64,000 bases of DNA from Acidobacteriota bacterium (GTDB taxonomy: Bacteria; Acidobacteriota; UBA890; WLXD01), in assembly GCA_963666055.2 (NCBI GenBank), contig CAXWPH010000015.1, positions 224,001 through 288,000 of the forward strand, read 5' to 3'. The translations under genes were made by a program, and so were the position numbers. Every line of letters starts with the position of its first letter. Positions within the stretch are counted from its first letter, which is position 1. This document shows positions 1-15,477 of the stretch, piece by piece. The notes under the pieces are model-generated. The model was not told where the DNA came from, did not search any database, and saw only the letters and a list, made by a program, of their open reading frames with translations.

Positions 1-303
1 GAGATGACGTCGAGCGCGCGGCGTCGCTCCTGTTCCGAATAATCCAGCCACGCGAAGCTAGAAGTCATCGCCTCAGATCCGTCTAGGCTCCGGGAAAGGC
101 TGCCGTCGATTGACCCTGTCTTTCGGAGCGGCGCTGATGCCGGTTCGGTGGCTCGAACTCCATCTGAAGCGCAGATGGTACCAGCCGCCCTTGTTGAGCA
201 CTTGGGCTGTCGGGTTGTCCTCGTGGAGCCGCTGCATAATCATCACGTGCGCTGCGCCCCTCGAAGCTCCGCGCGTCGAGAGCGTCTGACTGGCGCGGCC
301 CTG

Positions 304-329
304 ACTTTCGATGCCCCCGGTTGAACAGG
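304..329 (-). other. cos-like packaging motif, copy 3
   Basis: + strand actttcgatgcccccggttgaacagg is nearly identical to 8321-8346 and shares its core with 12458-12486. Confidence 0.45.
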
Positions 330-638
330 CATACGCAGGTGCGCGGAGACGCCGGCCGGCGGCCGACCAGAGGCAGGGTAAGCGCAAAACGGCCCGCGAG
401 ACGCTTCAGCAGCGTATACACAGGCGAAAACCTCGGGCGGTGATGCGGGATCCTCCCCCATTGTGGCTGCGTCTGTCGGGGTTGTGGAAAACCTCCACCC
501 GGACAAGACAAGAATCCGGCGCGCTGCCAGCGCTCAAGAGCTAACGATCTCCTCCAAGAGCGCTCTGGTCGATGAACCGCAGTCCAACCGCCGGCACGCC
601 GCGGGTCCGAAACCACCGCCGTGGGCCGTGCGTTCGCT

Positions 639-1007
639 CTAGAACGCGATCGCACCTGCCCTCAGCAGATTGGTCAGGTGGGCAACCACGTTCGACTTCC
701 GTCTCTTGAAATAGAAAACTCGTCCTTGCTCATTGTCGCTCACGTGATAGCAATTCCAGCGCTCCAGCCCCATGTCATTGAGCCGTCTATCCAAGTCCTC
801 CAGATCAGCGTTTGCTACCTTGAGTGACGTGTACTCGATGGCCCAGAGGTCCTGGAGCTCTTCTGCCGACAGGTCACGCAATTCGCCTGCCCTCGTCCGC
901 GCGTCATCAATTATCTCCTGAGCATCCTCTCGCAACTCAGCCAACGGAGCCTGCTGACACCCGACAGAAAGCACCATCATTGACACGACAATTCGTATGG
1001 TTCGCAT
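639..1007 (-). CDS. Hypothetical lipoprotein, DUF4177-like C-terminus
   Basis: Lipobox-like LSVGC after a hydrophobic stretch; EY...LNDMGLERW...YFKR pattern resembles DUF4177. Confidence 0.6.
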   Translation of the reverse strand: MRTIRIVVSMMVLSVGCQQAPLAELREDAQEIIDDARTRAGELRDLSAEELQDLWAIEYTSLKVANADLEDLDRRLNDMGLERWNCYHVSDNEQGRVFYFKRRKSNVVAHLTNLLRAGAIAF

Positions 1008-1155
1008 ATCGTTCTCACCCTATGTAGCCAGTGACAGTGACCTGACCCCGCGGTTAGTACCACGTCGTATCTCAGTAACTCGGTGCTGACAAGAGGACGT
1101 TGAGGCCGGCGAAGCGGAACGCAGCCGGGTTCAACAACAGCGCCTTGATCGGCCC

Positions 1156-1414
1156 TCAGGCTCGCCCACAGAGCGCCACGTTCACTACCTGGAGCGGGTA
1201 TGCGTCGTGTGCCACGTGGTACGCCACCGGGTTGAGCACGATGCTCGTCTTGCCCCATTGGCTCGATTCCCATCACGACGACGTGTCGATGCCGGGCTCG
1301 CGGAAGGCGTCGAGGACGCCGCGTTGAAATGGCGCGTGTCGGAAACGGTCCGCTGGCGCGGCAGTTCGAGTGCGCGGGCCCAGAGGTCGCGGTGACCTCG
1401 AGCTCGGCGCGCAC
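1156..1414 (-). pseudogene. Phage terminase large subunit (lambda GpA-type) N-terminal fragment
   Basis: Stitching frames gives TSGP...APFQRGVLDAFREPGI-HVVVMG-SSQWGKTSIVLNPVAYHVAHD, matching the GpA adenine-binding (PYQ) and Walker A (SAQVGKT-like) region; frameshifted and truncated. Confidence 0.7.
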
Positions 1415-1500
1415 CGCCTTCGGGCCGCCCCATGTGCGCGGCTCGTGCCACCCGGCTTGAGATCGTGGCCGGCCAGGCGAGCATGATCGTCTTGCAGCTG

Positions 1501-1622
1501 ATGGTGCGGTTCATCGAGGAGCATCGTGACGGCTACTCGGTTGAGCCGATCTGCGCGCAGGTGCCGATCCACCTCGTCCAGGTACTATGAGCACAAGAGT
1601 CGTCAGGCAGATCCCACGAGCG
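1501..1622 (+). mobile_element. IS3-family orfB N-terminal remnant
   Basis: MVRFIEEHRDGYSVEPICAQVPI then, after a frameshift, RYYEHKSRQADP, the typical start of IS3 OrfB. Confidence 0.75.
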
Positions 1623-1936
1623 CATCGGGGCGGCACAGGAACCTCGCCGCCGCGGGCGCTTCCCTTGGTTGCAATGCAGGCCGGACGCTGACTCTCGCCC
1701 GCCATGCCGGCTCGCTACGCATGCGGACAGTTCGCTACCCGGAGCGCCGTGGCGCGGGTGCGCTTCGGGCCAATAGCGGTTGTAGGAGCGCGCGCGAACT
1801 GATGGCATGATGGCAGTCGCCGCCAGCCTTGCAATTGCGGCGAGCGTGCTACTCGCGAGCACTGCAATCTCGGCACAGGAGGACCTCAACGTGACGCTCT
1901 GCCCTTCCCCACCTTCGTAGCTTCACCCGACGCTGA

Positions 1937-2359
1937 ATGCCATACCGACCGATCTCGACGCGGCTACTCCGAGTAGAGGAATTCCAACGTGCCATCCAGG
2001 GGCTTCAAGTTGGCGACCGGTTGCGTATCACCAGCTTCGACGAAAGGCCTGTTTCGGCCGTAGTGTACACGCGCGGCGGGGGCTTCTTGGGAACGGGCCG
2101 CCAGGTCGGCTATCTGAGCAACGCAATTGCACGAAAGGTCGCGGAGTACGAGAGCAGTGGCGGGTTCGTCTATGCAGTAGTTACAAAGCGCTTGCCGCTG
2201 GGCGCTGAGATTGACGTTTGCTTCACTGACGATGTGGCCGAACTGATGCCCGCATCGAAACCGGGATACGATGCCGAGATCGCCGGCGGGTGCGGTTTCC
2301 TGCTGGTCTTGGTCGTCCTGGTCGTCCTGGTGACCGCGCTGCTGACCTGGGCCTGTTGA
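1937..2359 (+). CDS. HIRAN-like domain protein with C-terminal transmembrane helix
   Basis: LQVGDRL...AVVY...QVGYLSNAIARKVA resembles the HIRAN fold signature; hydrophobic tail FLLVLVVLVVLVTALL. Confidence 0.55.
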   Translation: MPYRPISTRLLRVEEFQRAIQGLQVGDRLRITSFDERPVSAVVYTRGGGFLGTGRQVGYLSNAIARKVAEYESSGGFVYAVVTKRLPLGAEIDVCFTDDVAELMPASKPGYDAEIAGGCGFLLVLVVLVVLVTALLTWAC

Positions 2360-2429
2360 CGTGGCGTTCTCACGGTCGGCGGCCTCCGTGTCGCGGGATC
2401 CGGTGGCTTCAGGCAGCCGATCGACAGGC

Positions 2430-2615
2430 TATGGCGGTCATTCCAGATTGCTTCGAGAATCTTGTCCTTGTGAACGCGGATGGCCTCGAGCAACTCCGGG
2501 ATCGGAGGGACGTGGCACGGAGATGCAGCCTTCGCCCGCACGCGTGCATGCTGATGCCTTCCGTCCGGGCTCGTCGGATCAATCGCTCGGCGACACTCAA
2601 AGCGAAACACTCCAC
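2430..2615 (-). pseudogene. Small prophage/satellite protein, TubC N-terminal-like, frameshifted
   Basis: LIRRARTEGISMHACGRRLHLRA + frameshift + PIPELLEAIRVHKDKILEAIW. Confidence 0.45.
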
Positions 2616-2686
2616 TCGGCATCTGCCTGAGCCGGTTCCGTGTTCGGGCCCGCTTTCTCGGCACTGTTCGCGGAAGGCATCCTTTC

Positions 2687-2757
2687 AACCGGTACATCCG
2701 GTACAAGCCCTGTCGGCCGAGCATGGTCTGTACCGGCTGTACCGCTTGTACCGGATG
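2687..2757. repeat. Iteron-like inverted cluster: CCGGTACA x2 facing TGTACCG x3
   Basis: Perfect 14-bp inverted repeat catccggtacaagc (2695-2708) / gcttgtaccggatg (2744-2757), plus extra 9-bp-phased copies. Confidence 0.75.
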
Positions 2758-2815
2758 AGTCGGTGCCGGTATGGGTGCAACTACCCTCCTCCGGGGCGTG
2801 GCGTTCCCACGCCTC

Positions 2816-3112
2816 GCGGTTCGCGACTGGCTCGGTAGGCTCGGCGTGGGGACGCTGTTGATCGAGCCGGGCTCGCCTTGGGACAACGGTTACGTGGAGA
2901 GCTTCAACGGCAAGCTCAGAGACGAGTTGCTGGATAAAGAGATCTTCTACACGCTCGCCGAGGGCAAAGGCCTTGGGTGCAGGGCTGGCGCCGTGAGTAC
3001 AACCAGGTGCGGCCCCATTGCTCACTCGGCTATCGGCCATCCGCACCCGAAATGACGTTGCCAGCTCCGATTCTATGAGTTACGAAACGGCCCAATCACC
3101 TGGGGCAGGTCA
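2816..3112 (+). mobile_element. IS3-family transposase C-terminal remnant with right end
   Basis: VRDWLGRLGVGTLLIEPGSPWDNGYVESFNGKLRDELL, frameshift, WRREYNQVRPHCSLGY; ends in ...tggggcaggtca, an IS3-type terminal repeat ending CA. Confidence 0.85.
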
Positions 3113-3278
3113 CAGTTCGATCCCAACCGCATTGGCGCCCTCAGCTGTTCGACCATCGCATCGCCTCCAGCAGCCCTTCGAGGTGCGCCATGCACTCGCA
3201 AATCCGGCGAGCACGCGTGGCTAGAATCTCAACCAACAGAATCAGTGACTTGCATGCCAATGTGGGAGCTGGCAGGCG

Positions 3279-5543
3279 CTACCAGTCGAACGAGCGCGTC
3301 ACCTTCAACGTTAGGGTGCGGTCGTGGCGGCCGAACTGGAAGCCATCGTACTCGCCGGCCTGACGGTACACCAGGTAGATATCGTCGCCGATGCGATAGA
3401 TGTAGCGCAGACGCGCGAAGATCGACACGGTGTTGAAAAGGTTGTTGTACTGCACCAACGCGTCGGTGAGCCAGCGGTCCGAGAAGCTGTAGCTGGCGCG
3501 TGCGTTGAGCAAGTTAGAGATGAAGCTGCCGCCCGGCAGGTCGATCTTGTTGTAGCTGAAGGCGGGGGACAGCTGCAGCTTCTCGCTGAACCGAATCGTC
3601 ACTTCCGGTGATAGCGACAGGATCGTGCCGTCAAAGAATTGACCGAACGTGCCCATCGTGGCGGCGCTGATCCTGCGCCCGTCGAAGGTGAACGCGAACA
3701 CGTCCAAACTGTTGAACTCGTACTCGCCGGGAGGGATCGTCACTTCCGGATGGATCTGGAAGGGGAAATCCAGTCGCTCGAAGGTGTTGAGGTAGGCGAC
3801 GCCGATCGCATCTCCGGACTCGAAGTTCAAGAACGCTCCTGCGGACCCCTGTCGCGTCACGAGGTCCCCGCGCGTGTCGTGAAAGGTAGTAAAAAAGGTG
3901 TCGAAGGTCACCGAACGTAGCCACGAGACATCAGGCCGAGGGTTGAATGACGCTAGGTAGTCGCGCCGCACAACGTCCTCGCGAAGAACAAATCCCAGGT
4001 CGCTGCGGAAGCCGGGGTCGATGCGCATCACATCGACGCTGGCGGTCCACAGATCGCTTTGCCACCCGATGCGGAACTGGCCGGCGTACTTGCCCTCCTC
4101 GAGGTCGTCGTCGATGGCTCGGGCACCGAAAGCCGAGATGTTGAGGTTGTCGAGAAACGTGAAGCTGACGTCGGCGCCCACCACCGTGTTCGTGTGCCCG
4201 TCGGGTCCTTCGACGTTGGTCACCAGCGCGCCGACGGACGATCGCTCGAGGACATCCTGTCGCCAGCGCAGGGCCGTGTAGTTGCGCCCCTCGCCGAACT
4301 CCGAGTCACCCGTACGGACGTGTAGGAAGCCGAGGTTACCGCTGCCGATCTTGCCGGTCATCTTGGCGCCGAAGTCGATCGGTAGCGGCTCGCCGAACTC
4401 CGACAGCCCGATGTTGCGCGAGTGGAACAATTGAAGCACCGGCGCCTCGAAGCCGCCGGAAAGACCGGACTGCTGCCCGAAGCTGAAGTTGTTGGCGCCC
4501 TCCAGGAAGAAGTCGCGTTTCTCAGGGAAAAACAGGTCGAAGCGTGTCAGGTTGACGCGTTGCTCATCGAGCTCGACCTGGGCGAAGTCGGTGTTGTAGG
4601 TCAGGTCGGCGGTCAGGTTCGAGGTGAGCTGGATCTTGAGATCGTCGATGCCGAGCTGCTCGTCGACGTTGTTGGTGCGCCCGGGGTCCTCGAACAGCGA
4701 CGTGACGGTGCCAAGAAAGTAGGGCCTTAGACGGAAGCGCTGGGTGACCGACAGGTTCTCGAAGCCGCGCAGGTCGCCGGCCTGCGACACAGCGATGAAC
4801 TGGAAGTCGCGCCGGTAGTTGCTCCAGGCCACCTGCTCGTTCTTGCGCAGGATCTGGCGCTCGAAGTCGACACCCCAATCCGAGGCACCTGCCGAGTAGC
4901 GCAGGATCCGCAGCGGGATCACCAGCTCGGCCTCCCATCCACGCGAGGTGATCTGTGCCGCCGCTTCCCAGGCCTCGTCCCAGTTGGAGTTGACCTCGCG
5001 CTCGTTGCGGATGGTGGCATCGTAGCGCGTGCCAAGCGGGTTGACGGTGAACTGGAACGCGCTGCGGCCGTCGTTGAAGGTATCGAGCAGAACGGTGAAG
5101 GTATCGTCCGACCTACGGAATTGGTGCCCGATCGCGTCGCGTCGCAGCTCGGTGGCTATGATGGCGCTCGGGTCACTGTCGTAGGCGATCAGGCCGACAT
5201 AGAGGTTCTCGTCGTCGTAGAGAATACGGACCTCGGTGCGCTCGGTTGCAGGCTGACCTTCCCGCGGCTCGCGTTGCAGGAAGTTGGTGGCGACATCGGC
5301 CAGCGTCCAGCTGGATTCGTCCACGATACCGTCCATCACGGGCGGCTCGACGGCGCGGACGACGTTCATGCTGGCAGCGGCGCTATCGGGTGCGGGCGCG
5401 CCGTCCGGCTCCTGAGGCGACGATCCTACCGCCGGCACCGGGAAGGCTGCCGAGATCGCCAGGCTCGCCAGTGTGAGCGACGCGAGAGCACAATGCCATC
5501 GCGCCCGTCCTCGGCACCACCGAGTCCGACCGTTTCGAGCCAC
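3279..5543 (-). CDS. Exported CBM9-like + DUF5916 outer-membrane protein (start uncertain)
   Basis: PVMDGIVDESSW, TEVRILYDDENLYVG, GWEAELVIP, TYNTDFAQVELD, FFPEKRDFFLEG; C-terminal aromatic residue. Confidence 0.85.
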   Translation of the reverse strand: MARNGRTRWCRGRARWHCALASLTLASLAISAAFPVPAVGSSPQEPDGAPAPDSAAASMNVVRAVEPPVMDGIVDESSWTLADVATNFLQREPREGQPATERTEVRILYDDENLYVGLIAYDSDPSAIIATELRRDAIGHQFRRSDDTFTVLLDTFNDGRSAFQFTVNPLGTRYDATIRNEREVNSNWDEAWEAAAQITSRGWEAELVIPLRILRYSAGASDWGVDFERQILRKNEQVAWSNYRRDFQFIAVSQAGDLRGFENLSVTQRFRLRPYFLGTVTSLFEDPGRTNNVDEQLGIDDLKIQLTSNLTADLTYNTDFAQVELDEQRVNLTRFDLFFPEKRDFFLEGANNFSFGQQSGLSGGFEAPVLQLFHSRNIGLSEFGEPLPIDFGAKMTGKIGSGNLGFLHVRTGDSEFGEGRNYTALRWRQDVLERSSVGALVTNVEGPDGHTNTVVGADVSFTFLDNLNISAFGARAIDDDLEEGKYAGQFRIGWQSDLWTASVDVMRIDPGFRSDLGFVLREDVVRRDYLASFNPRPDVSWLRSVTFDTFFTTFHDTRGDLVTRQGSAGAFLNFESGDAIGVAYLNTFERLDFPFQIHPEVTIPPGEYEFNSLDVFAFTFDGRRISAATMGTFGQFFDGTILSLSPEVTIRFSEKLQLSPAFSYNKIDLPGGSFISNLLNARASYSFSDRWLTDALVQYNNLFNTVSIFARLRYIYRIGDDIYLVYRQAGEYDGFQFGRHDRTLTLKVTRSFDW

Positions 5544-5938
5544 ACGGCAAGCTCGCGCGCCACGGCCAGCGTAGCGGAAGCCGTGGGCCCCACCGGCACA
5601 AGCGCCCCCGCTGGTGAGGAAGCTTCCGTGCGGGCCCCTTTCCCACGTCGGCTCTTCGACCTCATGAGTTCCAGTTGCCCCTTTGGGGTCGTCAAGAACG
5701 GCGTGTAGAGACATTCTTCGCATTCTGTGTTCCTGCTGAACAAGGGCTTTGTTCCGAGTCGCACGCAGAGCGTGCCCAACCGCTGGTTTCGGCGAACGTA
5801 CCGTCACTCGCTCGATCGAACGATACGGTCGTCTCGAGCCTGTTTCGGTGCGCTTCATGCCACGGTCGTTTGCCGTCACGCATCACGGTCGTATTGTTGA
5901 GCAGTTACGAGCGGCGCGCACGACGGCTGTAACGGATC

Positions 5939-7066
5939 ATGAGGGGTATGCAGTTGACCAAGACGTCGCTGGACTCGGTGCGATGGCGCTTGCTGTACGC
6001 CATCACCGCGTGGGCAGGGATCGCCACGCTACTGCTTGCGACGAGCTGGGGCGACGAGCACCGTAACCGGCTCATCTGGGCGGTCAGCGACTCGCTTGGT
6101 CTCGCCATCTGGGCACTCCTCGGTGTGGCCCTCTACCCTGTCCTGGCGGCGCCGTGGTCCCGACGCGGAGCTTGGGCGCGGAGAGTGCCTCTGTTGCTGC
6201 TTGCCTGGCTCTGCGGAAGCCTGGCAGGACACATGGTCGAGGTAGTAGTCGATGTGATCTGGCTCGATCTGCAGACGGGTCAATGCGGCGTGGCCTGCTC
6301 CATATTGCGCCGATTCACCCACTGGGGACTCCTGCCAGTACTGTTTCTACACCTACCCGGGTTTGTCGGCCTGCTTGCTCTGTGCACAATCGTGGTGTTG
6401 TTGGACCGCTCTCGCCAGCGAAAGGCTTCGCACGCTGTACTGATGGCGGAGCTTGCGGACGCTCGTCTGACGAATCTGCGCGCCCAGCTGCAGCCACACT
6501 TCCTGTTCAACACGCTCAACACTGCCGCCAGCCTGGCGGGCACCGACTCGCGAGCAGCGATCGAGTTGCTGTCGGAGTTGAGTTCGCTGCTCCGCAGGGC
6601 GTCTTCGGCAGGCGACAGCCACTTCGCTACGATTGCGGAAGAGGTCGCCTTCCTCCGCAGCTACATTGCGATCATGCAGTATCGCTTCGGCGACCGCATC
6701 GTGGTTGATGTGCATGTCGACAAAGGTATCGAGTCGGGGCTCATTCCTGTTCTGACGCTTCAGCCTCTAGTGGAGAACGCATATGTACATGGGCCTGGAG
6801 CCTCGCCGAGCGGGGGCAGAATCCGCGTGAGCCTCGTCCGCTCCGGACAACGGATCAAACTGAGCGTCACTGACGAGCTGGCTGGGGCCCCCGGTGTGAG
6901 TGTCACGTCCGGCCAGGGCGTAGCACTAGAGAACCTCGAGGCGCGTTTGTCGCACCTGTACGGCGCCGAAGATGCCTCGTTACAGACGACGTCAAAGGGG
7001 GATGCGGGATTTATCGCTACGGTGGAGGTGCCGTTTGTCATCTCCGAGGAGGAAATTTCACCTTGA
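5939..7066 (+). CDS. LytS/YehU-family sensor histidine kinase
   Basis: N-terminal TM helices; LRAQLQPHFLFNTLN H-box; LQPLVENAYVHG; GVALENLEARL. Confidence 0.92.
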   Translation: MRGMQLTKTSLDSVRWRLLYAITAWAGIATLLLATSWGDEHRNRLIWAVSDSLGLAIWALLGVALYPVLAAPWSRRGAWARRVPLLLLAWLCGSLAGHMVEVVVDVIWLDLQTGQCGVACSILRRFTHWGLLPVLFLHLPGFVGLLALCTIVVLLDRSRQRKASHAVLMAELADARLTNLRAQLQPHFLFNTLNTAASLAGTDSRAAIELLSELSSLLRRASSAGDSHFATIAEEVAFLRSYIAIMQYRFGDRIVVDVHVDKGIESGLIPVLTLQPLVENAYVHGPGASPSGGRIRVSLVRSGQRIKLSVTDELAGAPGVSVTSGQGVALENLEARLSHLYGAEDASLQTTSKGDAGFIATVEVPFVISEEEISP

Positions 7067-7851
7067 GCGCATCCAAGCCGATCCGCGTTCTCGTTGTGGA
7101 TGACGAACAGCCAGGAAGGCAACGCCTAGTTGACTTGCTGGCTCAGCGGGGCGATTGCGAACTGGCGGTAGTCTGTTCGGATGGCAAGCTCGCTTCAGCC
7201 GCAATCAACGAGCATGCTCCAGATCTCGTCCTGCTGGATATCCAGATGCCAGGACTCAGCGGTCTCGAAGTCGTGCGGCGTCTGGGTGGCAACGCACCAC
7301 ATACGATCTTCGTCACAGCATATGCGGAGCACGCACTGACCGCCTTCGAACTGGCTGCCGTCGACTACATCCTGAAGCCTTTTACCGAAGATCGGTTCAA
7401 CGCCAGCGTTGATCGTGCGATCGAGCTGATCCGCTCGGCTCGGACAGGCGCTCGGCTGGCGACACTCCAACATCTGCTGAAATCGCGGGACGGGCGAGTT
7501 GACACTCACGACCGACCGTGGCCGCAACGCGTCGCTGTCGAGAGCCGAGGGAAGCTTCGCATTGTTGCCCTCAACGACGTAACCCACATCACCGCCGATG
7601 GCCCCTACGTGAACCTCCATGCAGGCGATACCACGCACTTGGTCCGTGTCCGGATCAAGGATCTGGAAACAAGACTCGATCCTCAGTCGTTCTGGAGAAT
7701 CCATAGGTCTACCATGGTGAACGTAGATGCGATCGAGTCACTGAACGCGCTGGGGGCCGGAGACTATGTCGTGCGCCTCAAGTCAGGCGAGGAGCTGCGG
7801 CTCAGTAGAACCTTCCGCGACGAGTTGTCGAGTCGCATGGCACTGCTATAG
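7063..7851 (+). CDS. LytTR-family response regulator
   Basis: VVDDE, LLDIQMPG, FVTAY, YILKP receiver motifs; FWRIHRSTMVN LytTR domain; 4-nt overlap with the kinase. Confidence 0.93.
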   Translation: MSASKPIRVLVVDDEQPGRQRLVDLLAQRGDCELAVVCSDGKLASAAINEHAPDLVLLDIQMPGLSGLEVVRRLGGNAPHTIFVTAYAEHALTAFELAAVDYILKPFTEDRFNASVDRAIELIRSARTGARLATLQHLLKSRDGRVDTHDRPWPQRVAVESRGKLRIVALNDVTHITADGPYVNLHAGDTTHLVRVRIKDLETRLDPQSFWRIHRSTMVNVDAIESLNALGAGDYVVRLKSGEELRLSRTFRDELSSRMALL

Positions 7852-7994
7852 CTGAGTCGCCGCCGCAGCGCGTCGATGGCATCGCCTCCAACGCCGGCAG
7901 CCTCGAAGTGATGGTTGGCGTGCCGATCACTGGACGTCGGCGTCGCCTTGCCCGGCAGCCAGACGGTACCAGCAGACGGCGTCGGCATGGCTCC

Positions 7995-8251
7995 TCAGGT
8001 GTAGAGCGATCGCCCCGGCGTGCTTGCGCTCGTGGGCACTGCCGGCAGATCGGGTGGATGGTGTCGCGGTCCCAGAAGCGCTCGGGAGCTAGGTGGGCGG
8101 GTTCGATGTGGTCGAGCTGCTCGGCACCGACCGTGAAGCCCGCCTCGGCGCAGGGACGGCACAACGGCTCGTCTCGGGGGATTCCGGCGCGCCACCGGCG
8201 ATACCGGCGATGCCACCGCATTCTTCGGAGAGTTTCGGTCTCGGTCGGCAT
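7995..8251 (-). pseudogene. Phage-type HNH endonuclease with a 1-nt insertion
   Basis: EPLCRPC...LDHIEP...ICRQC; removing one base of the G run at 8034-8036 restores CHERKH; 3' end approximate. Confidence 0.8.
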
Positions 8252-8320
8252 GCTCTCAGTCTAAATGTGTGTGTGTAAATGTACTGGGGGGCGACGGTAT
8301 CCGGGGGTCATGGGGCTGGA

Positions 8321-8346
8321 ACTTCGATGGCCCCCCGTTGAACAGG
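8321..8346 (-). other. cos-like packaging motif, copy 2
   Basis: Minus strand cctgttcaacggggggccatcgaagt, 70 nt upstream of the HNH start. Confidence 0.5.
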
Positions 8347-8569
8347 AATGCCCGGGCATGGACAGACGCCGGCGGTACCTTTCACCGACTCGGTCGCTGG
8401 GACCCGTCGAGCGACTTCACGAGATCTGCTACTGGAGCGGACGGGACGCCCCGCCCGGCGTCCCCGTTGCAAGTAGCGCCGACGGCAAGTGAGCACCGTG
8501 CCCGCTACCCGTCCCCCCGGGACGGTGCGCTTCCAATGTGCTGCGTCGACGGGATCTCGTCCCCAGGGC

Positions 8570-10516
8570 TCAATTCACGCCGCCTTCACTTGTCTGGCGC
8601 AGTGCAGCGAGCACTCGCTCGGGCGTGAACGGTGTTTGATACAAACGGATTCCCACCGCGTCGTGGATGGCGTCGGCGACGGCCGGCGCGATCGCCGGGC
8701 AGGGCATCTCGCCGACACCCCGTGGACCGTTGTTCGGGTACGCCTGCAGCCAGGCGATGTCGATCTCGGGAGTGTGACGAAAGCTGGGCACTTCGTAGTC
8801 GCCGAACACACGCGCATGGACCTGATGGCGATCGGCGACGAGATTCTCCACCAGGCAGTATCCGATGCCCCACATGATCGCCCCGCGGACGTTGACGGTG
8901 CAGTTGCGCCGATTGATGACCGTACCAATGTCAAGTGCACAGCAGACACGCTTTACCCGCACGACTCCCGTCTTGCGGTTAACCTTGACCTCGACGAAGA
9001 AGACCCCGAGCTCGCGCGCCCCGTGATTGATGACAGACACACCGAGCCCGTGATCCGGCTGCCGCATGTACGTGCTGTACCGGATCAAATCGGCGCCTGA
9101 ACTCAACAGCTCGTTGAACGCTTCGAGCTGCACGTTGCGTCTTCGGAACTCGACCCGGTCGATCCCGGCCAGCTCCGCTAGATGGCTCATGTGGCTCTCC
9201 ACTGCGAAGCTGACCTGCATGAAGCTAGTACCGCGGACCACCGCGTGGCGCAAAGGCAGCTGGGTCTTGTACAAACGCGTGCGCGAGTTGGGCACCTTGT
9301 AGGTATCCAGCGTGCCGTGACCCGTGTCGTTGATGATGTCGATGTGACGGGTATCAATGGTGCCGTCGGCATTAAGGGTGCTGCTGATATCGATCACACA
9401 CGGCTCTTTGGCGCGCGCCCGGCCGACGAACTGGTCCGCACGGCTGTAAACGTACTTCACCGGCGCCCCGGCAAACCGCGACAGCTCCGCCGCCTCGCCG
9501 CCGACGGTGTTGGAGATCTTGCCTCCGTAGCCCCCGCCAACAGGCATGCCGGCCACCCGCACCTTGCCCGCACCTAGGCCGAGGCGCCGAGCGATCAAGG
9601 CCCGTTGCAGGTGGGGTCCCTGGCTTGCCACCCACACGGTGGTGCCGTCCAGCCGCACGTCAGCGACAGCGCTGTCAGTCTCCAGCGGTGCTTGCGTGGT
9701 GAAGTGCGTGATGTACGTTTCGCTCAGGCGCACGCCGCCACCGGGTCCAGGAGCATCGACATTCCCTATATTCTCGATCTCGGTGACCAGTTGAGCGCCC
9801 CGACGGATGTCGCGTTCGAGATTGAGCTTGGCGCGGCCCGGAGGCTTGCGCCAGCGAGCGGTGATTGCCTTCAACCCCAGCTCGACGGCGTGGTAACTGT
9901 CGCCGATCACTGCGGGGCGGCCACGGACGATTCCTACTTTGGCTACTCCGGGCACCGTACGCGCCCTGTCCAGGTCAGCCGAGATAAGAGGGCTCAGGTG
10001 CTCGTGATACGGCGACCGAAGGTATGCACCGTACAGCAGCCCGCCGGGACCGAGATCTCCGACATACTGCTGCGCACCGGTCACGATGTCGCGAGCCCGG
10101 ACATCGTCCAGACCTCTGTCCACGTACGACCCGGACAGCTCCTGGCGCGCTGGCGGCTCCAAGTCCACGAGCACGACACTGGAGACAACCAGCTGGCTCA
10201 TGCCCACGGTCATGCTCGGGTCTGAGGCCGACACGACACCGCCGCGCCGGACCTGGACTTGCTCCGGGTCCAGTCCCAGAATCTCTGCCCCGGCCCGCCG
10301 CAGCGACATCGAAGCGGCCAGCGCAGTTTGCCAAAACCCCCATCCCACCTGCTGTGTGGCACTGCTGCCCTCGGTAGTTCCATCGTCCGGACACAGCTCT
10401 GTGTCGCCCATCACCACGTCGACTGCCTTGGGCGATATCTCGAGTGCCTGGCTGACGAGGGCGACGATGACTGTCTCCAGACCCTGGCCGATCTCGGTGA
10501 TCGCCAGGCCCGGGAA
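8570..10516 (-). pseudogene. 5'-truncated xanthine dehydrogenase/isoquinoline oxidoreductase-family molybdopterin subunit
   Basis: TEIGQG...VVMGDT, VGGGYGGK, FAVESHM, GVGEMP, AVGIRLYQTPFTPERV; in-frame stop at 10517-10519 with no proper N-terminus; no 2Fe-2S partner nearby. Confidence 0.8.
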
Positions 10517-10677
10517 TCAGACGATCAGCAGCACGGATCGCCCGACTAGAGAGTCTCTACCGCTTCAATGCCCAACCCTTGGGCAAAACACCGAGCCACT
10601 GAGACAGGACGTGGTATTAACCGTGGGGGCTGGTCAGTCTTCGTCCAGGCTTGAGCACACAGGGGAGTATTCGAGCG

Positions 10678-11373
10678 ATGTTTTTCTTCGATCCGACGTA
10701 TCTGGTGTTCATCCTACCGGGATTGGCTCTGTCGCTCTGGGCAAGCTTCCGCACGAAGTCGGCATTCCGGAAATATTCGAAAGTGCGGTGTGCGCGCCAC
10801 CTCACCGGCGCCCAGGCCGCCCGCCTCATGCTCGACCGCGCAGGGCTGCACGACGTGAGCATTGGGCGGTCACACGGCGTACTCTCGGACCATTACAATC
10901 CGGCCACGCGCCGCTTGGCATTGTCGAAGGACGTCCACGATGCCGCCTCGATTGCGGCGATCGGCGTGGCCACGCACGAAGCCGGCCATGCCATACAGCA
11001 TGCGGCCCACTACGCCCCCCTCTGGCTGCGGAGCACACTCGTGCCCACGGCCAACATCGGTTCGTCGATCGGCTACGTCGTGATGATGATCGGACTGTTT
11101 ATGGCATCGCAGTCTTTGGTGGCCGTTGGCGCGGTCCTGTTCTCGGCGGTCCTTCTGTTCCAGGTGGTGACTCTTCCCGTGGAGTTCGATGCCACCGCTC
11201 GCGCCAAGAAACTCGTGGTGGAGTACGGGATAATCAGTGAGCACGAGCGGGCGGGCATGGACCGCGTGTTGAACGCCGCCGCGCTCACCTACGTGGCCGC
11301 CGTGGTCAGCACGCTCCTGACCCTGCTCTACTTCTTGATGCGGGCTGGCTTGCTAGGCGGCCGGGACGACTAA
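10678..11373 (+). CDS. Membrane zinc metallopeptidase (YugP/Zn_peptidase_2 family)
   Basis: LSDHYNP, VATHEAGHAIQH, TLPVEFDATARA, AAALTYVAA. Confidence 0.93.
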   Translation: MFFFDPTYLVFILPGLALSLWASFRTKSAFRKYSKVRCARHLTGAQAARLMLDRAGLHDVSIGRSHGVLSDHYNPATRRLALSKDVHDAASIAAIGVATHEAGHAIQHAAHYAPLWLRSTLVPTANIGSSIGYVVMMIGLFMASQSLVAVGAVLFSAVLLFQVVTLPVEFDATARAKKLVVEYGIISEHERAGMDRVLNAAALTYVAAVVSTLLTLLYFLMRAGLLGGRDD

Positions 11374-11659
11374 CGGTGCTTTCCGAGTAGGTTGTTCACA
11401 TCGGGGCCTTCTGAGACCAATGGGGTAACCGGGACCAACCTTGGTGTGCCCATTGCGGTGCTGCCACCGCGGATCTTCCGCGTCGGCGCCAGCGTGAGTT
11501 TCTGAGGCGCACCGTGCTGATCTGAGCTGTCGGGTCCGGGCGGGTGGCGGCGTCCCATCGTGTATCGCGGCCTGGCCTCTCGGCTCCTACCTGAGCGAGC
11601 CCGCATGCGCGTCGGCGGGGGAGGTGCAGAACTCGGGATTGGCGGGGCCGATTCCAAGA

Positions 11660-11775
11660 CCCGGTACGAAGAAGCTGCTCCAGGAGAGAAAGCAGATCGA
11701 AGAGGAATTCGGTGACAGTCTTACCTGGCACAACGCCGAGAACGCTCAAGCGTGCCGAGTGTATGTTCAGAGGGG
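11660..11775 (+). pseudogene. DUF4268-like fragment
   Basis: KKLLQERKQIEEEFGDSLTWHNAENAQACRVYVQR; no start or complete domain. Confidence 0.55.
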
Positions 11776-11799
11776 CACCGTGATCCGTACTGCCCTGCG

Positions 11800-12055
11800 G
11801 CGGGCCTCCCGGCGGAGCGCATCCACCAGGAAGAGCTGTCGATCCGCGTCAAGCGCCGCTGCAAGTGGAACGAGCCACAGGCGAATGTCGCTGCCGGCTC
11901 TAGCGCGCCGAACGAGCGCTGGAGCATGGCCTTCATCACCGACCAACTGCACAGCGGCCGCTAGTTCCCCATGGTGACGGTCGTGGATCACTTGACTCGT
12001 GACTGCCCGGTGCTGGAGGCCGGTGTGTCGATGAGCGGGCAACTAGTGGCAACGT
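11800..12055 (+). mobile_element. IS3-family integrase-core remnant
   Basis: EELSIRVKRR...APNERWSMAFITDQLHSGR*FPMVTVVDHLTRDC; internal stop and first catalytic D lost. Confidence 0.8.
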
Positions 12056-12204
12056 GCATAAGCGTCTGTCGGTGCAGCGGCCCGTCACTGAAGGGCTGGC
12101 CGGCGAGTGGACACTCGGTGATGGTCAGCTTCTCGAGTCAGTAGATGGATGCGGCGCGGACTCGGGGCCCTCGGAGCGGCAGCGGGAGTCATTTGCCCGC
12201 CAGC

Positions 12205-12385
12205 TCGACCAGATGTGGTCGATGTGCTCCGCTGCGACCGTGAATCCCGCTTCGGCGCAGGAACGGCATAACGGCTCGTTCCGGAGGATTGCGGAGCGCC
12301 ATCGCTGGTAGCGGCCGCTCGATCGCATCCGGCGGACGACTTCGGGATCTGTCGGTGTTTTTCGGGGTCTCATTCTCGTGGACAT
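12205..12385 (-). pseudogene. HNH endonuclease, 3'-truncated paralog of 7995-8251
   Basis: RYQRWRSAILRNEPLCRSCAEAGFTVAAEHIDHI aligns with RYRRWRAGIPRDEPLCRPCAEAGFTVGAEQLDHI; similarity stops after DHI. Confidence 0.8.
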
Positions 12386-12457
12386 AATATGCTCAAAATT
12401 TTCCGTTGCTTACAAGTCGTAAGGCACTCGACGGTCTAGAGTGGTAGCCCGCCGTTT

Positions 12458-12486
12458 ACTTTGATGCCCCCCCCCCCCCCCCCCCC
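12458..12486 (-). other. cos-like packaging motif, copy 1, with 20-nt G run
   Basis: Minus strand G20-catcaaagt followed by ctctagaccg...gaaaatttt, about 73 nt upstream of the HNH start. Confidence 0.5.
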
Positions 12487-12886
12487 TAAACGACTGTGCC
12501 CTATAGGGTTACGCGGGTGGACGGACGGCGCTAGAGCGCGCGCGAGCGTGGGCCCATAAATGCGTGTTAGGGGCTCGAGATCTCAGCAGCGTGGTGGTGG
12601 CCAGCTGGCGCAGTCGGCGCGCGGTGGTGGCCTCGACGATCGCCCCTGTACCACATGTACCACGTGGTCCTGTTTTGGACGTATGGGCGCGGGCCCCCGT
12701 CGTAGGTGGTGCAATATTCGAGGGCCTGGGGATCTTCTCGCCTAGTGTGGCTCCAGGCGGAGCGCGAGGCCCATAGCGCCCTAAGTGGGCCTCGAGCGCG
12801 TTAGGCGGGCCCGTGGTGGCGCACCACTCGGCGCGGCCGGTGGTGGTGTGCCGATGTGGTGCTCGAGCGCCGGCGCGAACGCCTAA

Positions 12887-13243
12887 TCAGATGGTCTCTA
12901 CCGCCTCGATGCCAGCGGCCTCTAGCAACCGCTTGACCAGCCAGCCGAGTTCCCCGCCATTGTCCTGTGTCAGCGCATCCACGACCGCGCTCTCGTCGTC
13001 GCACACGTAGGCGGCGAAGCAATCGAGCTCGCCGTCCCGACGAGAGCGGCCGACGACGTGTAGCACGAACGGACGCGGGCCGCTCGCCGACGCGCAGCGG
13101 TACAGCGCGAGGCTCGTTGACGCCGAAGCGCTTGCGGTCCGCGCACGATGCGTGGCATCCGCCCTCCGCATCAGCTTCGTGGCATGCAACGCCATGCCTG
13201 CCGACTCTTGCTCTACGTACTCACGTACCGTCAGCGGCGCCAA
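12887..13243 (-). CDS. Hypothetical protein coupled to rep
   Basis: 118-aa ORF overlapping the rep stop, preceded by gaggag; no recognised motif. Confidence 0.5.
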   Translation of the reverse strand: MAPLTVREYVEQESAGMALHATKLMRRADATHRARTASASASTSLALYRCASASGPRPFVLHVVGRSRRDGELDCFAAYVCDDESAVVDALTQDNGGELGWLVKRLLEAAGIEAVETI

Positions 13244-15081
13244 AAACTCCTCGGGCTACAACGTCGTAGGCTCCCAGCTCGGGGACCTCGACCCTCTTCA
13301 CGCTTGGTGTTGGCGCCGAGCGTGCCGAGCGCGGTACCAGTCGACTCGCCTGCGCCGGTAGGCGGTCGCGGCAGTTGTTCGGGCGGCGCTCGGCGGCCCG
13401 CGATCGCTTTGTCCCCGGCAGGCGTGTCGGCGGCGAGTGTGTGTGGGGGAGTACTCCTGTCGGACCGTACCCTCTTCGGGTCATTATGTGTACCCAAAAA
13501 CCTCATGTGCGCCATGGGGAACTCAACGATGCTCCTGTGCTGCATGGGGAACTCGATGATGCACCCGCGCGCAGGCTCGGCAGCCGGAGCATTGGCTAGA
13601 GGACCTGGTGCAAAGCGCCGGCAGCGGTGCTCAAGGCGATCGGCTTCGCGTTCGATCCGGAGCCAGCCGAGGCGCACGGCGCGTTCGATCGCTGGTTTAC
13701 ACCAGCGCGGCGTACCGACCAACGCGCGCAACGTCGAGGCCGGCACGTCGGGTCGCCCTTGCCGGCACCGGGCAAGCGTATAGCCGACGACGCGCCGGAA
13801 CGCGCGCCGCAATGCCCGGTGTGGCATCTCGGCCGCGTCCGCCTCGAGCCGGGAGCGCACGTCGTCAGGCAGCTGCTCGAGCTCGGCTGCGGCGATCTCC
13901 CGGAGCTTGTGAGGCATCGGCATCATGGCCTCGGTCGCGGCGGGGTTGCGCAGCAACTCGGCGCCGCGTGCGTAGGATCTCGTGCAGTCGGCTCGCCAGC
14001 CGCGTAACTCGGCCCACGTGGCGCCCTGGAACGTGATCGCGTCGAAGGCGGTGAGCGTTGCATCCAGGTCGAGGCCCACGGCGTGCGCGAAGTGCCCGAT
14101 GGCGCGGGCGGTTGCATTGCGGTAGCCCGGTTCCACCGATCCGGAGCGCAGCAGTTGTGCGATCTCGCGCGGTCGATCCCAAGCCAGCGGCCCGACGGAT
14201 CCGAAGCGCGGCCGCTCACCGCCCGCGGCTTCCGCGAGCTCGTTCCGCTCGGCGCGTGCCTCGGCCGCGGCTGCGATCGCCTCCAGCGGCGATGGTGCCC
14301 GATTTAGGCAGGTCTCCGCACCCGGACCTGCGGCGAAGGATCCGCGAGTGTCCTGCGCCATCCTCGGGACACGAATCGGACACCTGCGCACCCGGAGCCG
14401 GTCGCAGTTGCCGCGCAGCTTGAGAATCGAGCGCAGCTGCTCGGCAGGCGATTCCTTAAGCTCCGCACCCGTGACAGGGTCGAGCCGGGCGGCGTCAAGG
14501 CCGGCCGGTAGACGACAAGCACCCACCAGGATCTCGCACCACTGCCCCGGCGGCGCCCCCGGCTTGGCGCGCAACAGACGCCGCACGTGCTCGGCCGCCT
14601 CGTCCGCCGGCATCGGCCGATCCAGCAGCACGTATACGTGCATCGATTGCTCGCGGTTGCAACTCGGCCGCGTGGCGAACCACACGGGCACGCCGGCGGC
14701 GCGGATCTCGCGCAGCGCTTCGTGTCGTGTCTCCGGGTCGCAGAGGTGCCGTGGCCCGTCGTAGTCGATCACCAGGTGACGAACGCGCCCACGCGCATCT
14801 TGCAACGGCGCGCCGAGCACCAGCTGGTGCAACCAGTGAGCCGCGGCGAGCGGCGGCAAGATCACCAGCCCACGGTGCCAGGACACTTCCTTGTTCCATT
14901 GGCCGCGACTGTCGCGGATCGTCTGAAAGAACCTCGAGGCCGCCGAGGTGTCGTCGCCGACGTGCGGTACCAGCTGGAGCAGCGCTTCGGTTACCAATTC
15001 CGGCGTCAGCTCCGCGGCGAAGCCCTCCGGCCACCGGTGCGGAAAGCTCGGCAGCCGCGCCAGCACTGCCCGCGGCAGCAC
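13231..15081 (-). CDS. Primase-type replication protein (AEP + PriCT + winged helix); start uncertain
   Basis: HLVIDYD (DxD), SMHVYVLLDRP (His motif), CRLPAG, GYRNATARAIG (PriCT-like), LRALVG...AIERAVRLGWL (wHTH-like); the listed 782-aa ORF wrongly runs through the tRNA. Confidence 0.7.
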   Translation of the reverse strand: MLPRAVLARLPSFPHRWPEGFAAELTPELVTEALLQLVPHVGDDTSAASRFFQTIRDSRGQWNKEVSWHRGLVILPPLAAAHWLHQLVLGAPLQDARGRVRHLVIDYDGPRHLCDPETRHEALREIRAAGVPVWFATRPSCNREQSMHVYVLLDRPMPADEAAEHVRRLLRAKPGAPPGQWCEILVGACRLPAGLDAARLDPVTGAELKESPAEQLRSILKLRGNCDRLRVRRCPIRVPRMAQDTRGSFAAGPGAETCLNRAPSPLEAIAAAAEARAERNELAEAAGGERPRFGSVGPLAWDRPREIAQLLRSGSVEPGYRNATARAIGHFAHAVGLDLDATLTAFDAITFQGATWAELRGWRADCTRSYARGAELLRNPAATEAMMPMPHKLREIAAAELEQLPDDVRSRLEADAAEMPHRALRRAFRRVVGYTLARCRQGRPDVPASTLRALVGTPRWCKPAIERAVRLGWLRIEREADRLEHRCRRFAPGPLANAPAAEPARGCIIEFPMQHRSIVEFPMAHMRFLGTHNDPKRVRSDRSTPPHTLAADTPAGDKAIAGRRAPPEQLPRPPTGAGESTGTALGTLGANTKREEGRGPRAGSLRRCSPRSFWRR

Positions 15082-15379
15082 GGCGCACAGGCCGCCCGTG
15101 AGCTCTGGGTGCTGGTGCTCTAGGTTGCGTAGGCGCCGGTAGCGCGTCGGCAGCCGCGATGGCCAGCACGGAGACAAACCCGCCGCGGGGTTGTCGATCG
15201 CTGCGGCGGCGCCAGGATTCTCATTACGGCTTGGTGTCCAGCATGACCACGATCCAGTCGTTCCTAAACTGGGTCTCTGGTACCCATGAGTTCTTGTCTG
15301 GTATTGTGTCTGTAATTGTATGCACCTTGAGATCGTGTCTTGGTATCTTGTTTCATTGCAACGACTTAGAGAAAATAAG

Positions 15380-15477
15380 TGGCGGAGGGGGTGGGATTCG
15401 AACCCACGTGCCGGGTTTTTACGCCGACAACTCGATTTCGAGTCGAGCGCGTTACGGCCGGACTTCGCTACCCCTCC
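15380..15477 (-). tRNA. tRNA-Ser(CGA)
   Basis: GGAGGGG/CCCCTCC acceptor stem, CTCGA-ctCGAaa-TCGAG anticodon arm, long variable arm, GTGGG-TTCGAAT-CCCAC T arm, encoded GCCA. Confidence 0.97.

Follow-up and report, generated by a model that had tools for sequence, protein, structure and literature searches.

Decayed remains of probable PICI-like phage satellites at a serine tRNA gene of an Acidobacteriota genome, probably split by chromosome inversions

Phage satellites have been described mainly from Proteobacteria and Firmicutes. For the phage-inducible chromosomal islands (PICIs), more than 99.9% fall into one or the other of these phyla and up to five are found per genome (PMC10085698). Gram-negative PICIs are activated by AlpA and use cos packaging without TerS (PMC6092414). 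HNH proteins are occasionally present in PICI and P4-like elements (PMC10085698), and the HNH protein gp74 of phage HK97 stimulates cos cleavage (PMC11331095). The authors of SatelliteFinder caution that degraded prophages can mimic satellites. Here we describe the DNA downstream of a tRNA-Ser(CGA) gene in a stretch of 64,000 nucleotides from an Acidobacteriota bacterium (the window, G000:C15:224001-288000). The genome, G000, comprises 5.7 Mb in 15 contigs and was compared with four congeners (G001-G004); L-numbers denote extracted loci and X-numbers sequencing runs. We consider the region to be probably the decayed debris of several PICI-type satellites at tRNA-Ser(CGA), with the integrase end displaced by 1.5 Mb after two inversions. 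New here are an expanded module of a cos-like motif and an HNH gene, and an orphan replication gene (Rep). The features that carry this reading are listed below.

15380-15477, minus strand: tRNA-Ser(CGA), the integration target, called by ARAGORN
15381-15393, minus strand: att core CACCCCCTCCGCC (attL), with an identical 13-mer at attR (G000:C15:1745909-1745921)
15220-15379, minus strand: AT-rich arm of attL in which two ACAAT-x-CA repeats are spaced by 12 bp, putative arm-type sites
14911-15408, minus strand: attL plus a 5' piece of Rep, 498 bp, duplicated (99%), second copy at tRNA-Ser(GCT), C15:2074314-2074811
13231-15081, or further upstream, minus strand: Rep, likely an archaeo-eukaryotic primase (AEP) with helical and helix-turn-helix (HTH) domains
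12887-13243, minus strand: chimeric open reading frame (ORF), its 3' part (12887-13116) being ORF113
12638-12684, no strand: palindromic GTACCACATGTACC motif
12387-12511, minus strand: cos-like motif 1 (G-run, AAAGT, AGACCG, TTGTAAGCAA), immediately upstream of HNH1
12212-12385, minus strand: HNH1, cut after 58 codons by a 144-bp deletion
8525-13116, no strand: block duplicated in inverted orientation, copy at C15:1718153-1710586, 91-99.5% identical, 2.8-kb deletion at 10499
8251-8358, minus strand: cos-like motif 2, immediately upstream of HNH2
8015-8251, minus strand: HNH2, a frameshifted pseudogene
254-341, minus strand: cos-like motif 3, cut short and joined to a piece of a terminase gene; complete cos-HNH counterpart in G002 (L044)
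166-291, minus strand: TerL fragment of 42 amino acids, phrog_38 type (E 0.009)

The tRNA-Ser(CGA) gene with a minus-strand Rep reading frame downstream, as seen in the initial annotation, was confirmed. The site is unoccupied in three of the four congeners (G001, G003 and G004), where a histidine-kinase gene comes next; therefore the window element is an insertion. This empty site and the absence of Rep from the phage collections searched (below) bear out the proposal of satellite relics at a tRNA 3' end. The fourth congener, G002, has attL and Rep at tRNA-Ser(CGA) as in the window, in two assembled copies of the locus. To the right of the tRNA, the genes have an ordinary chromosomal look.

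The att core comprises 13 bp and excludes the terminal A of the tRNA. Its partner was found 1.5 Mb from the window in a region (C15:1744136-1745921) that bears the matching core, an intact P4-type integrase and, likewise outside the window, an AlpA regulator (PF05930, E 9e-21). The integrase is of the tyrosine type with 402 amino acids (C15:1744457-1745665; Arm-DNA-bind_3 and Phage_int_M) and a ratio of nonsynonymous to synonymous substitution rates (dN/dS) of 0.16. The pair of ACAAT-x-CA repeats 12 bp apart, a pattern defined post hoc from the arms, is also present in the integrase-side arm (background 0.009 per 400 bp). A scan for an integrase and attR on the left-hand side of the window had been suggested; the last 12-25 tRNA bases do not recur there, and an integrase relic (C15:206048-206649) together with a degenerate tRNA-Ser(GGA) (C15:210220) was rejected as belonging to another island. 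This tRNA-like sequence (L001:6220-6309, C15:210220-210309) is flanked by insertion sequence (IS) copies, with a broken tyrosine integrase at a distance of 4 kb, and is likely the att of that island; a comparable call was obtained in G002 (L122). Within the window, the profile scans covered 24 ORFs (Pfam) and 20 ORFs (PHROGs). The earlier remark that capsid, tail and integrase genes are missing stood for these ORFs, which gave no capsid, tail or phage-integrase match (an internal-virion match reached E 0.08 only) and no holin or portal gene; the integrase itself is the one at attR.

The two att sites lie in inverted relative orientation and not as co-located direct repeats. Since attL and attR face opposite ways, Int would invert the DNA between them, not excise it, and the window's copy is likely immobile. 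Unlike here, the core genes are co-located in the sibling element L120 of G002. The second attL copy is found at tRNA-Ser(GCT), which has its last 29 bases in common with tRNA-Ser(CGA); it consists of attL and 300 bp of Rep (99% identical), and a truncated kinase block comes after. In all, attL is joined to Rep in five copies across two species. An attL core with arm and full Rep is also fused to an hsdR fragment in G002 (C9:80082-80546; L046:15399-16058), without a tRNA and with an unclean junction. Integration into hsdR at a secondary att (G002:C9:80.5 kb) was rejected, the hsdR homology starting about 17 bp beyond the arm match.

The host genes on either side of the island are rearranged compared with the congeners. 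In G000, attR is followed by host DNA that in G002 follows tRNA-Ser(GCT). In G002, the matching attR-integrase end, consisting of CACCCCCTCCGCC and a P4-type integrase orthologous to that of G000, precedes the kinase gene, and in G000 the kinase block stands behind the second attL copy. In all three congeners checked (G002, G003 and G004), C15:205144 adjoins C15:~1703000 in reverse orientation. The chromosome was divided into the segments A (to 205 kb), B (239-1704 kb), C (1746-2073 kb) and D, and the congener order was taken from local junctions, other rearrangements being present there. The congener junctions read A,-B,-C,D as against A,B,C,D in G000, and therefore two inversions are indicated. 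These likely parted attL from attR and joined two islands; the window would be a chimera of both and not the simple tandem stack that had been proposed. The breakpoint of segment B is likely at the block 8525-13116, the only long inverted repeat common to the two G000 islands that flank this segment.

It is very improbable that the rearrangements and duplications are artefacts of a metagenome-assembled genome (MAG). The assembly does have other exact repeats, and a gltX gene on contig C14 is only about 75% identical to congeners. However, the repeat copies differ from each other (98.8-99.5%), each with its own deletions, and short-read contigs of two studies, one of which may be the window's source, give the same repeat boundaries and the same junction of attR with the host gene gltX. 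In each of the runs X1, X3 and X4, a single contig spans this junction. The block 8525-13116 showed about twofold contig depth with contig ends at 12213 (X1, X3), and the 498-bp attL-Rep repeat appeared as a separate repeat-length contig in X1 and X7. The C14 region (L012:14727-16196; C14:547454-547823) carries this second gltX and a second tRNA-Ser(GCT)/(TGA) pair, about 75% identical to congeners, as against about 91% for the C15 orthologues. It is possibly a foreign contig or an old paralogous block.

Rep was free of stop codons over 464 codons in all five copies and had a dN/dS of 0.27-0.52; therefore it is a real gene. Its start is uncertain, as GTG 15081 was called and the ATG used in the L050 copy of G002 is out of frame here. 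The copies differ in the 3' 100 codons or so. At window position 14320, an X1 contig has a 1-base insertion in Rep that the X3 contig lacks, possibly a frameshifted allele. Rep had been annotated as an AEP with PriCT and winged HTH domains. The ESM Atlas placed it with AEP-TOTE, PriCT_1 and HTH_36 clusters at 0.96-0.97, and Foldseek with a weak model (pLDDT 51.5) gave CAPP Prim-Pol, LigD Pol and HP0184 on the top nine ranks (E 0.02-0.06). With VIA-align, the best Z of 6.1 was to an unrelated fold and AEPs followed at Z 4.8-5.4. The motifs IDYD and SMHVY are visible, with a beta-alpha core at residues 93-192. The language-model search and the weak fold matches point to an AEP, which is likely but not proven, and no HMM matched. 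Rep was present in three of 41 genomes, all of the same genus, and in five of 401 genomes, with two marginal matches (E 6e-5 and 5.5e-4). No distant homologue was retrieved by a word search (seven matches, all at least 86%) or by a hidden Markov model (HMM; six matches), and none beyond near-identical copies among 1.84 billion representatives. Rep was not found in INPHARED phages, IMG/VR or JGI metagenomes, and plasmids gave one match with E=1.

The three copies of one cos-like motif were found as annotated. The two paralogous HNH genes were also recognised, both matching phrog_2323 (E 6e-10 and 2e-13), and both proved to be broken. In HNH2 the frameshift lies near CxxCH and the conserved N is replaced by T; intact versions of 102-112 amino acids are present in public assemblies. 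HNH matches numbered 12 (10 loci) in G000, 12 in G002 and seven in G003, and none was found in the other 38 of 41 genomes. In a scan of 185,579 genomes, close HNH relatives occurred only on Acidobacteriota MAG records (L128, L129), which makes this phylum the likely one of the host. A DNA HMM trained on ten G000 motif copies returned 11 G000 sites (circular for ten). It also located the motif upstream of HNH in 12 of 16 G002 and G003 loci, of which two hardly differ from a copy used in training. A loose motif pattern, devised post hoc, stood upstream of seven of the ten G000 HNHs and downstream of none. At 24 distant HNH loci, counted without the near-duplicates L134, L138, L140, L141 and L147, it stood upstream of none and downstream of four (background 0.002 per 700 nt). 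A strict cos pattern had no match over the genome contig collection, which may exclude records of the own genome. When the motif was aligned to phage HNH-terS spacers, none of 200 two-base-block shuffles was as good for Halomonas phage H4907, Pseudomonas phage Alize and Pmp7.

The motif is placed directly upstream of HNH, where phages usually have terS. Behind HNH, L121 of G002 has terS and terL fragments (order cos, HNH, terS, terL) and L116 of G003 a terL fragment (cos, HNH, terL). The small ORF113 with cos and HNH is also found behind D5 or DnaB/AAA replicons. At the level of sequence, the cos-like motif followed by HNH is the distinctive shared unit, present at about 10 loci of G000 and at 6-12 in two sister species; the motif, with its likeness to phage spacers, is a candidate cos site. 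The G-run of motif 1 (window 12467-12486, minus strand) was 4-11 bases shorter in the short-read contigs of three runs, being either variable or a homopolymer overcall. Bxb1 gp1, presumably the first gene after the left end of this cos phage, was tried as a precedent for the order cos then HNH; it looked HNH-like by eye, yet had no Pfam match and an HHalign probability of 20%. The precedent is a weak one.

A selfish homing-like cassette, in which motif and HNH would serve nicking and recombination with no packaging role, would account for the many loci in three genomes and their absence from the 38 others, for the very different upstream genes and for the order reversed with respect to the phages examined. 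However, the copies have diverged from each other (mean dS 0.51) and show purifying selection (median dN/dS 0.36 over 55 pairs, which are not independent), and separate arrivals fit better than recent copying. Terminase genes also follow HNH in some elements, and the nearest PHROG families and INPHARED relatives examined are terminase-linked HNHs. We regard such a cassette as quite unlikely.

The initial annotation treated Rep-ORF-cos-HNH as the order of one satellite family. The last 76 codons of the chimeric ORF are 87% identical over 76 amino acids to ORF113 at C15:1710467-1710805. ORF113 (L003:7467-7808) is satellite-associated, has no Pfam or PHROG family and eight homologues at 40-95%; its Atlas neighbours are phage hypothetical proteins, a weak indication. 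The palindrome, which had been called iteron-like, is present, but it belongs with a D5-primase element and not with this Rep. In that element, two more copies are arranged as an inverted pair immediately behind the stop codon of the D5 primase (C15:1709780/1709883), possibly serving as its ori. Because the ORF is chimeric and the palindrome matches this pair, the order in the window is recombinant. By comparison with the siblings below, Rep-ORF-cos-HNH reads as a mosaic in which Rep and the ORF-cos-HNH tail derive from different parent elements, with the junction also in G002.

G002 L050 (C9:2.214-2.221 Mb): int, xis, ORF, Rep, terS and terL carrying an internal stop codon; a tRNA-Leu-like remnant, recognised by eye, lies alongside
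G002 L120: P4-type int, ORF, alpA, Zn finger, DnaB_N-AAA_25, ORF113, cos and HNH in one 7-kb run
G000 L003: Zn finger, D5 primase, ORF113, cos and HNH

Capsid-less, near-complete elements with shared parts exist in the congeners, and related ones with exchangeable replicons are many in G000 and two sister species; the siblings' replicases gave D5 and DnaB/AAA profile matches. Further integrase-Rep-terminase units of G000 lie on C2, C5, C6, C7, C13 and C14, and terS is present in the siblings L050, L007 and L048. An undescribed family with the fixed order AEP Rep-ORF-cos-HNH, present in two or three tandem copies at the tRNA, would explain why the junction is also found at the tRNA-Ser(CGA) site of G002 (81% over 606 nt) and why attL is fused to Rep in five copies. 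At three loci the 3' end of HNH runs into a 3'-end fragment of the AEP Rep (L007:14072-14315, L043:8360-8754, L052:10010-10310), which suggests deletions between tandem elements and, for such a family, earlier tandem copies. But the window has one full Rep only, cos2 and cos3 being without one. Only one of the four full Rep copies of G002 is in this order, behind the others come terS-terL, an unassigned ORF or, without a gene between, HNH, and ORF113-cos-HNH goes with D5 and DnaB/AAA replicons elsewhere. A fixed-order family is therefore judged unlikely, and we retain the debris of several recombined satellites.

Membership was judged on the components of SatelliteFinder. Of the five PICI core components (PMC10085698), the split element possesses an integrase, AlpA and, likely, a primase; terS is missing from the window and a capsid modifier was not recognised. 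No small terminase was assigned in the window by the PHROG scan, HNH2 touching phrog_4581 (E 0.005) via its HNH part. No capsid morphogenesis gene was recognised among the window ORFs in the general Pfam and PHROG scans, which contained no dedicated profiles. The element is PICI-like and is not counted as an intact PICI member. The terminase fragment had been named GpA; it gave no match to a GpA-type profile and none in Pfam, and is 45% identical to TerL of the phrog_38/Terminase_6C type. Ordinary temperate prophages stripped of their structural genes could have left the several types of TerL and TerS pieces and the head protease with half a capsid gene at C10:28-30 kb, and the caution of the SatelliteFinder authors applies here. 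Yet the compact units of 6-8 kb with integrase, regulator, Rep and packaging genes are repeated, with no tail, portal or lysis match among the scanned ORFs, and G000 has no portal (PF04860) or TerL_ATPase match and only the half capsid gene, on another contig. Stripped prophages are in our view an improbable source. The C10 locus (L113, G000:C10:27954-31397) comprises a head protease piece and half of an HK97-type capsid gene; 1.2 kb upstream, past an IS, there is a gene resembling terS. The locus is also found in G002.

Several results speak against our reading of inversion-split satellite debris. The TerL pieces and the capsid fragment could also derive from degraded prophages. No helper phage was found, with no close relative in IMG/VR or INPHARED. 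For four other phage spacers, 12-32 of 200 shuffles aligned as well as the motif, so that four of seven comparisons were not clearly above chance. Rep had no Pfam or PHROG assignment and no PDB sequence match, and its fold search gave no significant match; a single-sequence model (pLDDT 39) gave none at E<=0.001. No attP junction was among the loose ends listed from four short-read runs. G002 has the cargo 3216-7986, unchanged in order, behind an attL-Rep of its own. This arrangement agrees badly with a breakpoint at 8525-13116; therefore the breakpoint is not pinned.

We propose the following course for the inversion-split satellites. In the intact ancestor, Int would excise the element and AlpA would activate it upon helper-phage induction, as deduced from Gram-negative PICIs. 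Rep (an AEP here; D5, DnaB/AAA or DUF3631 type in the siblings) would replicate the element, and a cos-packaging helper would provide capsid, tail and usually terminase. The element's HNH, encoded behind the cos-like site, may assist cutting there as HK97 gp74 does. Siblings would have recombined via shared cos-HNH, cargo and IS3 sequences, joining the AEP Rep to an ORF113-cos-HNH tail. The first inversion (C15:1.746-2.073 Mb) might have been made by Int between a tandem attP-like junction and tRNA-Ser(GCT), or by recombination of the two attL-Rep copies; for the second (about 0.23-1.71 Mb), the 4.6-kb inverted block was the likely substrate.

The remaining features of the region are cargo, small ORFs and IS scars.

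2389-2640, minus strand: small ORF with weak TubC_N likeness
2816-3118, no strand: IS3 scar, with further scars at 1033-1146, 1432-1590 and 10589-10640
3279-5516, minus strand: CBM9/DUF5916 protein of a multicopy family, cargo
5939-7851, plus strand: LytS-like kinase and LytTR regulator, cargo, 98% identical in G002
8570-10499, minus strand: molybdopterin oxidoreductase large subunit, 5'-truncated (PF02738/PF20256), cargo; full copy of 715 amino acids in L003
10678-11373, plus strand: neutral zinc metallopeptidase (PF04298, E 4e-79), cargo
11624-12038, plus strand: DUF4268 fragment and IS3 fragment

The IS3 scars were verified by rve_3 (E 8e-13), with many copies across the genome. The TubC_N label of the small ORF could not be upheld: it has no Pfam match. 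With 18 bits, a paralogue at C15:329705 falls short of the TubC_N (PF18563) cut-off of 26 bits, a value reached by three further ORFs of G000. Homologues were located behind the Rep of a satellite-like element in G003 and, abutting cos3, in G002. The LytS/LytTR cargo is also next to a cos-HNH relic in G003. G000 and G002 share the cargo at 3216-7986 and 8525-12212 with 95-98% identity (kinase dS 0.024, integrase dS 0.042), whereas a flanking core gene has a dS of 0.197; the cargo was therefore recently transferred between species. Homologues were not confined to complete prophages or ordinary plasmids, and the same cargo order was not seen in relatives free of the relics, in keeping with the initial annotation. 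A minus-strand DUF6361 gene (window 1-68, L001:19301-19999; E 1e-34) begins at window position 68, right behind the TerL fragment. A lipoprotein-like ORF of 122 amino acids (639-1007) and an ORF of 140 amino acids with a C-terminal hydrophobic stretch (1937-2359) have no family and are single-copy in G000. Type I restriction-modification genes, GmrSD and Mrr within islands (L004, C15:1723001-1743000, and L007:5372-6256) are possible defence cargo. An intergenic element of about 280 bp (L002:3776-4053), resembling a miniature inverted-repeat transposable element, occurs dozens of times, at 80-97% identity, in G002, G003 and G004. ARAGORN also called tRNA-Pyl(CUA) (C5:65608-65685) and two tRNA-Sec (C6:7932-8029 and C13:66090-66187), which lie in a duplicated 8-kb segment, in G000.

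The window itself is non-functional debris. If satellites do supply an HNH of their own behind the cos site, this would offer a testable means by which they could bias cos packaging. The locus also illustrates that a tRNA island seemingly devoid of an integrase can be one half of an element broken up by inversion, a trap for window-based calls and for those of the SatelliteFinder type. More speculatively, and with considerable doubt, these elements may form an undescribed Acidobacteriota satellite lineage with its own cos-cutting HNH in the terS position, at least four swapped replicons including the orphan AEP and about ten copies per genome, which would drive megabase inversions between serine tRNA genes via the integrase and repeated modules. 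In full-text searches that covered few subscription papers, no description of a cos-then-HNH satellite or of an Acidobacteriota satellite or PICI was found; supplementary element tables and profiles may hold cases.

Among known systems, Rep, a likely AEP, resembles the AEP primase-polymerases (AEP-TOTE, PriCT_1, RepB', LigD Pol, CAPP) in its DxD and H motifs, core and helical/HTH C-terminus, but has no detectable sequence homologue outside its near-identical copies. The HK97-like cos modules share the HNH family (phrog_2323/144, PF01844) and, in H4907, Alize and Pmp7, the spacer motif, whereas here HNH lies downstream of the motif, a candidate cos site by sequence likeness. With the P4-like satellites the elements share the P4-type integrase, AlpA and, in L003, the Zn finger and D5 primase-helicase; unlike them, they had no psu, sid or delta match in the general Pfam and PHROG scans, which included no dedicated profiles. 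The capsid-forming PICIs (cf-PICIs) share HNH, terS and terL with the siblings L121, L116 and L050, Pmp7 (OR544138) being an example of HNH-terS-terL. In contrast to cf-PICIs, the loci have no capsid, portal or head-tail genes and no intact terL (in the window, the 42-amino-acid piece only), and the order is cos-HNH-(terS) instead of HNH-cos-terS. The Gram-negative PICIs of the EcCICFT073 type share the integrase, the AlpA-type regulator, a primase or replicase (in the window a likely one), a cos-like site or terS, and the lack of tail and portal genes, the near-intact siblings measuring about 7-10 kb; EcCICFT073 has two cos sites and no TerS (PMC6092414). Compared with these PICIs, of which up to five occur per genome (PMC10085698), there are about ten relics per genome in a likely Acidobacteriota host and the window copy is broken, and the elements have their own HNH right behind the cos-like site and several unrelated replicons, including the orphan AEP.

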